Virus record (IMG/VR): IMGVR_UViG_3300023178_000035
Source of the DNA: a virus
Reading direction: 5' to 3' (one strand)
Length of the DNA: 64,000 bases
Below the pieces are notes generated by a model that was not told the origin of the DNA, ran no database searches, and was given only the letters and a program-made list of their open reading frames with translations. Below are positions 2,460-51,214 of this stretch, piece by piece. Both the position numbers and the translations under genes were made by a program. Within the stretch, counting starts at the first letter, position 1, and the number at the start of each line of letters is the position of its first letter.

Positions 2460-3953
2460 TTACACCATTAAGAAGCATTCAACGTACTTCTCGCCAGTAT
2501 TTAGTTCCGTTTCTAATGCTATGCCTACTAAATGATCTGCTTCGTCTGTAGATCCAGTTCCGTCTTCATGCGCATAAATCTTTTCGCCTTTTCTAACAGG
2601 ACCATCAACTAGCACAGGAACTCTTCCTTTAAGGGCAATAGCTTGACCATTTTCTAAATCACTGTTCATTAAATATGCTGGACTTTCTGATATCACACCC
2701 ATTGCCACAGGAGCACCTGGTTGATATGCTGTTGTCTCTGCATCGCCATGCGTTGCGATAGTCATTATTGTGCCTACTCTGTAATCGCCGTCTAAATCAG
2801 TAGTATACATTTCAGCTAAATCTGCATACCTAGCTTTAGTAGCTGTGCCTTGGAAAAGTGTAGCATTTAAGTTACCACTTGAATCTCTTACTGCAACAGT
2901 ATTTGCAGTGCCTGCTCCAGAACTATCAACACTAGCAACTCTGTCGTTGCCGCCTACTCTCATTGCACTTGCAACTTCTGACAATCCGTAAAAGTTTGCT
3001 GCATGCATATTTACAAATGCTCTTGATGCAGATCCGATATCAACACTTTCACCCGAGCCAGGTAAAATTTCTCCTGCTTTTACTTCTAATACATCTGTAC
3101 TACCAATTCTATGTACAGTTTTATCACCTTGATCGTTAGATATTACAGCTTCGTTACCGTTTTCTACAAGTAACTTTAAATCTTGTCCTGCACCTACAAA
3201 TAAACCTGTATCATTGCCTATAGACACAGGTTGGGTAAGTGCTGTAGTTTGCCCTTCTACTTCGCGAATAAATGCTGATGCTAAAAATCCACCTAGCATT
3301 TCTGAATTTCTAGCAGTACCAAAGAATCTATGATCGCTTGTAGTTACACCATTTGTACTTGATTGCGTGTTTCTTTGTGTAACTCCTGGTTTTACAACAT
3401 CAAAGTTTGGAATTGCATTGTTTTCTGCTGTTTGATCAATTGTATATTCTGCATCATCGCTGAATATATAAACAATAACATCATTAATGATTGCAACAAT
3501 AGCTTTATGTAGTGTACCACCTGTATCTTTAATCAAACGACTTTGCATTTGTGTTACACCACTACCTGCATCCTGCGGACCTACAAGTATAAATTCACTA
3601 CCAGTATATACATGTAATTGCAGATCGTCGCTATCCCACCATAAATCACCTTCGCTAAGACCAGCTGGCGCAGTGGTTGCTACTTCAGTGCCGCCTGTAT
3701 TGCGCCAACGTGTACCGTTCCAATACTTAATTTTACCGTTACTAGAATCATACCAAATTTGTCCAGTAAGCGCTCTAGGTGGCTGATTACTACCTGCAAA
3801 ATTTTCTAATAAAAATACAAAGTTTTCATTTTGTATCTCACCATAGCCTGCATAGTTTCTACCTACTAGTTTCAAATCAGTTGACTGATCAATAGTACCG
3901 TCTTCAACTACGGTTAATACATTGGTGTTATAATTGTTAATTGTATATGCCAT
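2460..3953 (-). CDS. Tail fibre protein with C-terminal intramolecular-chaperone (Peptidase_G2-like) domain
   Basis: N-terminal domain MAYTIN...GRNYAGYGE..NENF..LLENFA...P....GQIWYD is shared with the next two genes. The C-terminal ATKARYADLAEMY...GVISESPAYLMN...ALKGRVPV.V.G.V.KG matches autocleaving chaperone domains of phage fibres. Confidence 0.75.
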   Translation of the reverse strand: MAYTINNYNTNVLTVVEDGTIDQSTDLKLVGRNYAGYGEIQNENFVFLLENFAGSNQPPRALTGQIWYDSSNGKIKYWNGTRWRNTGGTEVATTAPAGLSEGDLWWDSDDLQLHVYTGSEFILVGPQDAGSGVTQMQSRLIKDTGGTLHKAIVAIINDVIVYIFSDDAEYTIDQTAENNAIPNFDVVKPGVTQRNTQSSTNGVTTSDHRFFGTARNSEMLGGFLASAFIREVEGQTTALTQPVSIGNDTGLFVGAGQDLKLLVENGNEAVISNDQGDKTVHRIGSTDVLEVKAGEILPGSGESVDIGSASRAFVNMHAANFYGLSEVASAMRVGGNDRVASVDSSGAGTANTVAVRDSSGNLNATLFQGTATKARYADLAEMYTTDLDGDYRVGTIMTIATHGDAETTAYQPGAPVAMGVISESPAYLMNSDLENGQAIALKGRVPVLVDGPVRKGEKIYAHEDGTGSTDEADHLVGIALETELNTGEKYVECFLMV

Positions 3954-49271: not shown

Positions 49272-50444
49272 ATGTCAGAACTACTAGAAGGTCGCTGGCA
49301 CGACACTAAAAGTGCTTTGCTTGAAGGCCTAAACGGTAACAAAAAATCCGTAATGGAAGCAACTCTCGAAAACACTCGTAAGCACTTGATGGAAACCGCG
49401 ACTGCTGGTGCAACTGGTGCAGGTAACGTTGCTACCCTTAACCGTGTGATCCTACCAGTGATCAGACGTGTAATGCCGACTGTAATTGCAAACGAAATTG
49501 TTGGTGTACAGCCAATGACAGGTCCAGTTGGTCAGATCCACACTCTACGTGTTCGCTACAGCGACACAGCTGGTTCTGGTGCAAGTGGTGCAGTTGCAGG
49601 TGAAGAAGCACTTTCACCATTCAAGATTGCAGAAGCTTACTCCGGTAACACTTCTACAGGTAAAGGTGCTAACACAGCTAACCTAGAAGGTTCCGCTGGT
49701 AACCGTCTAAGCATTCAGATCCTAAAGCAAACTGTTGAAGCTAAGTCACGTAAGCTATCCGCTCGCTGGACTTTTGAAGCTGCACAGGATGCACAGTCAC
49801 AGCATGGTATTGATGTTGAAGCTGAGATCATGGCTGCTCTAGCACAAGAAATAACAGCTGAAATCGACCAAGAGATCCTAGCTAGCCTAGGTACACTTGC
49901 TGGTACAGTTGAAACATACGATCAGGCAGCAGTGTCTGGTACAGCTACATTCGTTGGTGATGAGCACGCAGCACTTGCAGTTCAAATTAACCGTGCAGCT
50001 AACCTAATTGCACAGCGTACACGTCGTGGCGCAGGTAACTGGGCAGTTGTAAGTCCATTCGCTCTTACAATTCTTCAGTCTGCAACTACTTCTGCGTTCG
50101 CTCGTACAACTGAAGGTACTTTCGAAGCACCAACTAACACAAAGATGGTTGGTACTCTAAACAACGCTATGAAGATCTACGTAAACACCTATGCAGGTGA
50201 CGGCCAAGCTGTACTTGTTGGTTACAAAGGTTCTTCCGAGTCTGATGCAGCAGCGTTCTATTGCCCATACATCCCGCTAATGTCAAGTGGTGTGGTACTA
50301 GATCCTAGCACATTCGAACCAGTAGTTAGCTTCTTAACACGCTACGGCTATGTTGAGCTTTCTAACACTGCTTCGTCGCTAGGTAACGCTGGTGACTACC
50401 TAGCTGAGGTTGCTATTACTAACGGTAACGTATCCTTTAGCTAA
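49272..50444 (+). CDS. gp23: Major capsid protein
   Basis: LIRR-like VIRRVMPT.IA.E.VGVQPMTGP.GQI..LR, RKL.A.WT.EAAQD....HG.D.E, YCPYIP…F.TRYG. Probable maturation cut after LME41. Confidence 0.95.
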   Translation: MSELLEGRWHDTKSALLEGLNGNKKSVMEATLENTRKHLMETATAGATGAGNVATLNRVILPVIRRVMPTVIANEIVGVQPMTGPVGQIHTLRVRYSDTAGSGASGAVAGEEALSPFKIAEAYSGNTSTGKGANTANLEGSAGNRLSIQILKQTVEAKSRKLSARWTFEAAQDAQSQHGIDVEAEIMAALAQEITAEIDQEILASLGTLAGTVETYDQAAVSGTATFVGDEHAALAVQINRAANLIAQRTRRGAGNWAVVSPFALTILQSATTSAFARTTEGTFEAPTNTKMVGTLNNAMKIYVNTYAGDGQAVLVGYKGSSESDAAAFYCPYIPLMSSGVVLDPSTFEPVVSFLTRYGYVELSNTASSLGNAGDYLAEVAITNGNVSFS

Positions 50445-50460
50445 GTTAAGTTTATTTTAT

Positions 50461-50489
50461 AAAATAGGGCCTACGGGCCCTATTTTTTT
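50461..50489 (+). terminator. Rho-independent terminator after the capsid gene
   Basis: AAAATAGGGCC-TACG-GGCCCTATTTT stem with a C(UACG)G tetraloop, followed by a T-run. Confidence 0.9.
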
Positions 50490-50501
50490 GACTTTTTTTG
50501 G

Positions 50502-50529
50502 TTGACTTTATAAACAAAGACTGTATATT
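50502..50529 (+). promoter_or_regulatory. Sigma70-type promoter driving a non-coding unit
   Basis: TTGACT (50502-50507), 16-nt spacer, TATATT (50524-50529). No ORF follows before the next terminator. Confidence 0.55.
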
Positions 50530-50534
50530 AAACA

Positions 50535-50712
50535 CTGTAACAAGACGTTGTTACAATATAGGTTGACTGAATAATCCGTGGCAGATGCGGATAAAGTAAT
50601 ACCGAAGGGGATAGCTTCCCGTCTTAGCAGATGCAGGTAAGTTTGGGTCGAGTAGACAGGAGTCTGCCAAAGACCCATTGAAGGTAATCCTTAATCCTTC
50701 ACCTATTTTTTT
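50535..50712 (+). ncRNA. Candidate ~170-nt structured small RNA (family not recognised)
   Basis: 5' hairpin TGTAACAA/TTGTTACA. Multibranch closed by ATAGGT(50558)/ACCTAT(50706) with four internal stems, then a T-run. Flanked by a promoter and a terminator. Confidence 0.65.
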
Positions 50713-50714
50713 AT

Positions 50715-50750
50715 AGAAAAAGGCATGTTGTTTTGCAGCATGCCTTTTCT
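50715..50750. terminator. Probable (bidirectional) terminator
   Basis: AGAAAAAGGCATGTTG…CAGCATGCCTTTTCT inverted repeat. Confidence 0.75.
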
Positions 50751-50759
50751 CTTATGTTG

Positions 50760-50848
50760 ATAAATACAATGTCATAGAGAGAACCTCAATGATGAGGACT
50801 TATGCTGTACCCACAGCGTAGACCTAGAACGTCACAAAGGAGAAAAAA
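50760..50848 (+). promoter_or_regulatory. Late promoter plus ~80-nt structured 5' leader
   Basis: ATAAATA 50760-50766. Hairpins CCTCA/TGAGG, TATGCTGT/ACAGCGTA and GAC/GTC, then AAGGAG RBS. Confidence 0.55.
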
Positions 50849-51214
50849 ATGGGACGTCCAGTAAATAAAAGAAATTTTGGCGCAACAGGTGTTGACGCTA
50901 CACCAACTATTCCAATTAGATTCCACGATGGCTCTAGTTTAATTGAAGGTAAAATACTTTCACAAAGAGGCACAAACAAATTTAACTGTTCAAACGACGG
51001 TGATACAATCACAAGAATTTGTAGACTAACATCAGACGGTTCTGCACCTAATGCTAACTTTGAATGTCAACTTATTGGCATTGGCGCTGGTGGCGGAGCA
51101 ATTGCAATTGCAAAGCTTTTTAACAGAACTGCTATAGACTATGATGGCAATCGTTATACATGGGCTACTGAAGATGACTCAACAGAGTCTATTCTAAGAC
51201 TTACTGCAATTTAA
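50849..51214 (+). CDS. Small virion structural protein (hypothetical)
   Basis: 121 aa, strong RBS, late promoter, first gene after the capsid gene. Confidence 0.6.
   Translation: MGRPVNKRNFGATGVDATPTIPIRFHDGSSLIEGKILSQRGTNKFNCSNDGDTITRICRLTSDGSAPNANFECQLIGIGAGGGAIAIAKLFNRTAIDYDGNRYTWATEDDSTESILRLTAI

Follow-up and report, generated by a model that had tools for sequence, protein, structure and literature searches.

The prohead RNA (pRNA) of phage phi29 is an RNA of about 174 nt that forms a ring on the prohead via intermolecular loop-loop pairs. ROOL and GOLLD, which are RNAs of phages and prophages, form RNA-only nanocages through loop contacts (10.1101/2024.12.08.627333). Another RNA, manA (Rfam RF01745), was classed as a riboswitch candidate in potential 5′ untranslated regions (UTRs), with no known ligand (Weinberg et al. 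2010, PMC2864571). It has been an orphan candidate since 2010; the searchable literature still describes it as a putative cis-regulatory element, and a 2026 preprint still calls it a putative leader. In that preprint, manA RNAs form decamers and a 60-subunit cage made from pentamers in vitro, using as contacts either L5-L7′ and L8-L9′, or L6-P6′ (GNRA), L5-L7′ and L3-L8′ (10.64898/2026.07.01.735769). Here we describe a manA RNA in a 64,000-nucleotide stretch of viral DNA (the window) from IMG/VR record IMGVR_UViG_3300023178_000035, where it follows the major capsid gene in a jumbo phage. We consider it to be a free-standing, trans-acting manA RNA that probably self-assembles, a reading to which we give a probability of roughly 0.7; that it is an independent RNA gene rather than a leader is held with slightly more confidence.

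When the whole window was scanned against Rfam at gathering scores, two matches were obtained, namely manA and the freshwater-2 motif (RF02980). The manA match runs over the full length of the model (Table 1), and positions 50536-50710 are almost certainly a member of the family. The window copy is a reduced form of 175 nt in which the GNRA-capped hairpin of the central domain (model positions 79-98) is deleted, so that two of the three hairpins of this domain are kept. Peripheral helices are variable within the family (10.64898/2026.07.01.735769), and we treat the missing hairpin as a variable, non-defining part. All core helices are present with few non-standard pairs: the 5′ hairpin, the closing helix, the P3 hairpin with its internal loop, the multi-branch central domain, P8 and the 3′ hairpin. 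The sequence also aligns to the upper-case consensus at UGACUGAAUAA, UAAAGU, the GACG loop and the GGUAAUCC..AAUCC loop, and the T run behind the closing helix has a counterpart immediately 3′ of the manA of cyanophage P-RSM4. The transcript region folds with a z-score of -4.75, none of 200 shuffles being equally stable.

The original prediction, made from the letters alone, had described a structured non-coding RNA in a self-contained promoter-RNA-terminator cassette without a meaningful open reading frame (ORF). This description holds: the architecture recurs in 25 related contigs, the hexamers, helices, run of seven T and both terminators that it listed are all present where it placed them, and no ORF is conserved, the longest frames across the RNA differing in strand, frame and length among 22 homologues. 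The novelty that it implied does not hold; it had itself named a match to a known family as evidence to the contrary, and the Rfam comparison gives manA. Nor did its proposals of a tRNA- or 6S-like mimic or a ribozyme find a counterpart, as no tRNA, tmRNA, 6S or ribozyme match was obtained when 50400-50900 was rescanned at E up to 1, and ARAGORN found no gene in the window. ROOL, GOLLD and phi29 pRNA gave no Rfam match window-wide at gathering scores, nor near manA at E up to 1. The manA family is thus already catalogued, and what is new here is the phage lineage and the shortened form.

Comparison with relatives extends this assignment. A capsid protein query retrieved 80 related viral contigs, 65 of them with at least 400 nt 3′ of the capsid gene. 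Rfam matches to manA occur in 19 of the 80, many under the cut-off. A covariance model (R1), built from 17 syntenic relatives without the window or the cyanophages, finds manA in 25 of the 80 contigs and in the window (E 2.5e-07, 31 bits); all 25 contig matches lie on the capsid strand, 110-1000 nt 3′ of the capsid stop codon. Since R1 also recognises each of the nine cyanophage manA RNAs that were fetched (E 7e-8 to 3e-16), the jumbo-phage RNAs and classical manA form one family. In the relatives' alignment, pairing covers 94.5% of cells and both sides have changed in 36 of 43 pairs, far above both shuffled and slid controls, although these figures are somewhat favoured by the fitting of the alignment to the structure. 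In these homologues, covariation is seen in the helices of the manA core. Alignment with MAFFT misaligned the window and relative L007, and covariance-model alignments were used instead.

The window and its syntenic relatives share the cassette, the insertion site, the promoter type, the terminator and the overall helix plan. Their manA copies differ: those of the relatives are 200-213 nt long, carry UAGUGCAAGGAA at the junction and mostly score 30-56 bits on the Rfam model, under its cut-off, whereas the window copy of 175 nt has UGACUGAAUAA and scores 62.5 bits. The window copy is a different allele, nearer to classical manA than the clade variant, in the same cassette. A contig from a marine run matches the core of the window allele (50564-50610) and diverges on both sides; it is a sister allele of the window type from another phage. 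No manA was found in the cultured jumbo phages XbC2, A4 and PA5oct, and blastn of the cassette against cultured phages returned nothing beyond chance matches of about 22 nt. Two pattern scans of viral contigs gave mostly chance matches, which were filtered and then checked by Rfam; the only real ones were L130, in which manA is followed by tRNA-Gly, and L262, which is the same phage as the window with 2 differences in 420 nt.

In the relatives, manA belongs to a cassette of about 260 nt, made up of a promoter, manA, and a terminator or tRNA-Gly, which is present in 25 of the 65 contigs and missing from the other 40. The TTGACT-16-TATATT promoter of the window, which had been predicted, is found at the same site by a promoter scan. 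Counting the window, there are 26 cassettes; in each, the promoter stands at a fixed distance from manA and agrees with the consensus at 9-11 of 12 positions. GG and an A-rich tract lead into the -35 hexamer, which begins with TTGAC in 25 of the 26; TGn precedes most -10 hexamers, and the spacer sequences vary freely. The promoter therefore draws its weight from its conserved position in homologues, a single match in the window being no more than chance. Downstream sequence is available for 23 cassettes, 20 of which have a terminator within about 12 nt, two a tRNA-Gly and one neither. The terminator hairpin starts 5-12 nt after manA in the 19 loci measured, and the tRNA-Gly(UCC) of the two cassettes without a terminator stands 5 nt 3′ of manA.

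In many relatives without the cassette, GATAAATAC and a freshwater-2 leader come after the capsid terminator, at a distance of about 20-100 nt; in the window, the cassette sits exactly between the capsid terminator and the late-promoter motif with its freshwater-2 leader. Because many cassette-less relatives keep the terminator, the late-promoter motif and the leader, the cassette is a clean insertion and the next gene is independent of manA. Its own promoter and terminator, together with the retention of the next gene's leader where manA is missing, argue that manA is here a free-standing accessory RNA gene and not a leader. A test for antiterminator pairing between the 3′ part of manA and the terminator arms gave z-scores of -0.35 (5′ arm) and -0.5 (3′ arm) in the window; the means over 19 loci were -0.69 and -0.85, with scattered signals only.

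Two loop-loop pairings recur in the family. The exact complementarity of GGCAGA (50580-85) and TCTGCC (50663-68), which had been pointed out from the sequence, is the core of a pairing of 8 bp between the P3 loop UGGCAGAU and GUCUGCCA in P8, and it is family-wide and covarying. A column-by-column pseudoknot search gave no information, as the loops do not line up in the alignment, and tests of the partners within each sequence were used instead. When own and swapped partners of the P3 loop and P8 interior were compared in 19 distinct jumbo-phage sequences, none of 5000 permutations reached the observed value; the variants include ACAGA/UCUGU, GUAAG/CUUAC, GUAGU/GCUAC and GCAAC/GUUGC. The second pairing, between the P8 loop and the 3′ hairpin loop, is AGGA/UCCU in the window and AAUGAUC/GAUCAUU, CAGAA/UUCUG or CUCGGU/ACCGAG elsewhere (permutation p = 0.0014 over the 19 sequences). 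Both pairings covary in the nine cyanophage members as well, P3/P8 as GGCAU/AUGCC versus GGUC/GACC, and P8/3′ loop as CUGUA/UACAG versus UUGUCA/UGACAG versus UCUU/AAGA.

In the window the two pairing targets are adjacent, AGGA being followed directly by GUCUGCCA (50658-69), and our own reading of the partner strings suggests the same adjacency in other manA members. If L6 of the preprint and the GNRA loop in the Rfam model are one and the same, the two window pairings would correspond to the L3-L8 and L8-L9 contacts of the preprint. The partner test for L5-L7 in the relatives was not significant (p = 0.37), these loops being mostly complementary with too little variation. By analogy with the members that assemble in vitro, we put the chance that the window copy self-assembles at about even. 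The repeat GCAGATGC noted in the original prediction is present in both copies, at 50581-88 in the P3 loop and at 50627-34 as the 3′ strand of a central hairpin. Both copies are complementary to GUCUGC (50662-67), the second over 6 bp, and the repeat could allow an alternative pairing; no conservation of it was found in the relatives.

Cultured cyanophages provide a second setting, for which nine manA RNAs were fetched by the coordinates in Table S7 of PMC9964418. In seven of the nine, a consensus-like promoter precedes manA, its end lying about 5 nt away. It reads TTGACA-17-TATAAT in P-HM1, P-SSM2, P-SSM4, S-SSM5 and MbCM1; P-RSM4 has TATAGT as its -10, and P-HM2 has TTGTCA as its -35. In P-HM1, P-RSM4, S-SSM5 and MbCM1 (L227-L230), manA follows gp23 by 60-67 nt, and the gp23 terminator hairpin includes the -35 TTGACA in its loop and 3′ arm, so that terminator and promoter are one compact unit in these four phages. 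In S-CREM1 and ACG-2014f, manA stands between two tRNA genes with spacers of 0-1 nt, and other members lie downstream of regA or pstS, upstream of gp32, or within arrays of tRNA genes. Several GenBank genes annotated as hypothetical proteins overlap manA, at L227 706-882 (PHM1_121), L226 885-1058 (PSSM4_169.1), L229 818-1024 (SSSM5_127) and L231 850-1024 (PHM2_011/012); these small genes are probably spurious ORF calls. Junction motifs resembling those of manA also occur between tRNA-Ser and tRNA-Tyr in L156 (1934-2267) and L205 (3342-3542), under the Rfam cut-off, and may be divergent manA-like RNAs in tRNA arrays. Viral contig L117, captured by chance, carries at 2722-3144 a permuted two-piece tmRNA of the alpha type adjoining tRNA genes.

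From these observations the following course of events can be proposed. The sigma70-type promoter at 50502-29, about 7 nt ahead of the 5′ hairpin, would start transcription, with a start site presumed near 50535-37, and the RNA would fold into the manA core. Termination at 50718-57 would then release a discrete RNA of about 180-220 nt that exerts no control over the next gene. Such an RNA would most likely act in trans as a stable folded particle, and the UGGCAGAU/GUCUGCCA and AGGA/UCCU pairings would probably join copies into closed oligomers, as is the case for other manA RNAs in vitro. The timing of expression, put as early in the original prediction, is a matter of inference; late read-through from the very highly expressed capsid gene may add to the expression of manA.

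Transcript data were sought in four runs that were compared with the locus (three of RNA and one probably of DNA). No RNA run listed in two run searches covers the manA stretch, and a literature search for cyanophage transcript maps of manA RNA found nothing usable. Short structured RNAs are often lost from RNA libraries. One exact-match contig from an RNA library extends from inside the capsid gene through its terminator to 50533; such contigs cannot show transcript ends, and carry-over of DNA is possible.

It is important to note that several points weigh against a free-standing, self-assembling RNA. Taken alone, the promoter match of the window is at the level of chance, with 47 sites scoring 10/12 or better in this AT-rich sequence where 43.6 would be expected, and a promoter directly upstream is equally expected of a riboswitch leader. 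In P-SSM2 and P-HM2, 16-45 nt separate manA from the start of a gene and no clear terminator is seen, and in the relatives L002, L043 and L028 the 3′ end of manA pairs with the 3′ arm of the terminator above chance. The RNA contigs extend over the capsid gene and a small part of the gene that follows, and leave out 50549-50761, which is uninformative either way. As for assembly, it is known only in vitro and from other members (preprint 10.64898/2026.07.01.735769), our loop numbering is mapped to that preprint by the position of the GNRA loop only, and sequence cannot separate intramolecular from intermolecular pairing. In addition, the window copy has no GNRA hairpin (P6), and the canonical complementarity between L5 and L7 is reduced in it to 3 bp.

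The alternative closest to the published classification (Weinberg et al. 2010, PMC2864571) is a cis-regulatory leader, in which manA is the aptamer and the 50718-48 hairpin the expression platform, and ligand-dependent read-through brings about early expression of the downstream late gene. The order of promoter, aptamer, terminator and gene is the usual layout of a transcriptional riboswitch, purL lies 16 nt 3′ of manA in P-SSM2, and in some relatives an antiterminator may form, its pairing reaching z-scores as low as -4; genomes with the layout of P-SSM2 and P-HM2 may include some in which manA serves as a leader. For the locus described here we regard such a switch as unlikely, given that a late-promoter motif and a freshwater-2 leader belong to the next gene itself and are kept in relatives without manA. 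Moreover, terminator stems vary while the 3′ end of manA is constant, the window gives no antiterminator signal, copies flanked or followed by tRNAs have no gene to regulate, and the downstream genes are unrelated across genomes. The proximity to the capsid gene (60-91 nt in the window and four cyanophages) could instead mean that read-through of a weak terminator appends manA to the abundant gp23 message, which it would protect against 3′ exonucleases or mark for processing, and the RNA-library contig that crosses the capsid terminator to 50533, with the reservations already given, would fit. This we judge improbable: manA has its own conserved promoter, the 40 relatives without manA have the same capsid gene and terminator, and other members are placed elsewhere, behind regA or pstS, ahead of gp32 or among tRNA genes.

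The RNA is compact, with several helices, and its promoter is of the host type; like many counter-defence genes, it is carried by some relatives and missing from others. These traits would also be expected of an anti-defence RNA, of a decoy resembling tRNA or 6S RNA, or of a self-cleaving ribozyme. The stretch matches no tRNA, 6S, tmRNA or ribozyme family, although a role as a sponge or against host defence is conceivable, and we give this possibility marginally less credit than that of an element of the capsid messenger RNA. Absence from most relatives and from cultured XbC2, A4 and PA5oct might even point to a non-functional remnant or a chance fold. This is the least probable explanation of all and can be nearly dismissed in view of the folding z-score, the Rfam E value, the extensive compensatory changes, and promoter hexamers that are conserved beside variable spacers. 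A free-standing RNA gene, in which manA acts in trans, is the reading that we retain.

The setting of the gene is that of a marine jumbo phage. The source record is an IMG/VR virus of 72 kb that is judged 19% complete, and the window is part of it. At the nucleotide level, the capsid gene is about 70% identical to its counterparts in Rak2-like jumbo phages, and near-identical DNA is present in seawater and salt-marsh metagenome runs; the window is a fragment of a coastal-marine jumbo phage whose capsid gene is of the gp23 type and whose late sigma factor is of the gp55 type. The location after the capsid gene in the late structural region, as predicted, is confirmed by the Pfam Gp23 match of the upstream gene. 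An ORF at 32067-33146 matches PHROG 12791, "sigma factor for late transcription" (E 4e-75), which supports T4-type late promoters in this phage. The T4-late-like GATAAATAC at 50759-67 lies 5′ of the freshwater-2 motif, and TTGATAAATAC is kept at this site in relatives with and without the cassette; its ATAAATA is a putative late promoter of the gene at 50849. The freshwater-2 leader, which is separate from the manA gene, ends at the ribosome-binding site and ATG of that ORF and occupies the same position in many related contigs, both with and without manA. A motif named after freshwater thereby gains a marine jumbo-phage late-gene context. The downstream ORF itself has no Pfam or PHROG family match. 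The capsid terminator hairpin recurs 3′ of the capsid gene in relatives without the cassette. TTGACT occurs twice, at 50489-94 and 50502-07, 13 nt apart and each time preceded by a T run; this may be a duplicated -35 region or a scar of cassette insertion. In four relatives, the spacer from the capsid gene to the manA cassette also contains a glutamine riboswitch aptamer (RF01739), which makes this capsid-downstream region a small island of RNA elements.

Table 1. Features of the manA cassette and its surroundings (window positions unless a contig is named)
Feature	Position	Strand	Details
Major capsid protein gene, gp23 family	49272..50444	+	Pfam Gp23 PF07068, E 5.4e-98; PHROG major head protein, E 1e-99
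Capsid-gene intrinsic terminator	50461..50494	+	11-bp stem then T run; hairpin 50461-86; terminator scan
Sigma70-type promoter	50502..50529	+	TTGACT 50502-07, 16-nt spacer, TATATT 50524-29; promoter scan
manA RNA, RF01745	50536..50710	+	62.5 bits vs gathering score 55.2; model 1-192 of 192; E 1.5e-13
5′ hairpin	50536-55	+	8 bp, TGTAACAA / GACG / TTGTTACA
Closing helix	50558-63 with 50701-06		ATAGGT with ACCTAT
P3-region helix	50574-79 with 50587-92		ATCCGT with GCGGAT
P3 hairpin loop UGGCAGAU	50579..50586	+	8-bp complement of 50662-69, including G-U pairs
Helix TACC/GGTA	50600-03 with 50636-39		Encloses GGGA 50608-11 with TCCC 50617-20
Helix TGGGTC/GACCCA	50644-49 with 50672-77		Encloses GTAGAC 50652-57 with GTCTGC 50662-67
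Docking strand AGGA + GUCUGCCA in P8 hairpin	50658..50669	+	
Helix TGAAGG/CCTTCA	50679-84 with 50696-701		
UCCU in conserved 3′ hairpin loop GGUAAUCCUUAAUCC	50688..50691	+	Complement of AGGA 50658-61
T7 run	50706..50712	+	Directly 3′ of closing helix
RNA-gene intrinsic terminator	50718..50757	+	14-bp stem (hairpin 50718-48) then TTTTCTCTT; terminator scan
ATAAATA, resembles T4-type late promoter of next gene	50760..50766	+	Motif
Freshwater-2 RNA motif, RF02980	50783..50851	+	51.0 bits vs gathering score 49.9
Downstream ORF, 121 aa, function unassigned	50849..51214	+	ORF list
Glutamine riboswitch aptamers, RF01739, in relatives	L002 4234-4281; L007 4233-4280; L020 3972-4021; L063 4666-4713		

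Compared with the catalogued family, the window RNA has the same junction (UGACUGAAUAA ... UAAAGU), the GACG-loop 5′ hairpin, the closing helix, P3, P8, the GGUAAUCC..AAUCC 3′ hairpin loop and the two covarying loop complements, and it shares the marine phage setting. It differs in its carrier, a Rak2-like jumbo phage, whereas catalogued manA RNAs belong to T4-like cyanophages or to Photobacterium, and it is shorter than classical manA, with the GNRA hairpin missing and the central loops changed. With its own promoter and terminator upstream of another gene's promoter and leader, it does not fit the "cis-regulatory" label. Transcriptional riboswitches such as the glutamine riboswitch (RF01739) have the same order of promoter, folded RNA, terminator and gene; unlike them, the window shows no conserved overlap of terminator and antiterminator, and the downstream gene has an independent promoter and leader.

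The likeness to phi29 pRNA lies in a similar size, a phage origin, an own promoter and oligomerisation by short loop-loop contacts, and the pentameric building block of manA (10.64898/2026.07.01.735769) can be likened to pRNA. In contrast, the pRNA family has no Rfam match in the window, and contact with the capsid is known for pRNA only. Marine Rak2-like jumbo phages and Kyanoviridae are distant lineages of gp23-type phages, and in both manA comes immediately after the capsid gene. Given this position and its construction from pentamers, manA could conceivably be tied to head biology, either as RNA rings or shells in head assembly or DNA packaging, like phi29 pRNA, or by enclosing or decoying a host factor that senses the capsid. 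We regard this as a long shot; to our knowledge, T4-type packaging motors do not use RNA.

ROOL and GOLLD resemble manA in that they are phage-encoded, are not leaders, often stand beside tRNA genes, and make closed homo-oligomers by loop contacts, while they are three to five times longer and share no homology in sequence or structure. By analogy, the window manA may work as they do. The locus and its relatives supply the genetic context that is absent from the structural work on manA, and the cultured cyanophages P-HM1, P-RSM4 and S-SSM5 are settings in which its biology is testable. As an insertion that the neighbouring gene can do without, with a strong, conserved promoter of its own and an end at its own terminator or at a tRNA, manA moves towards the free-standing phage RNAs, which include ROOL and GOLLD.

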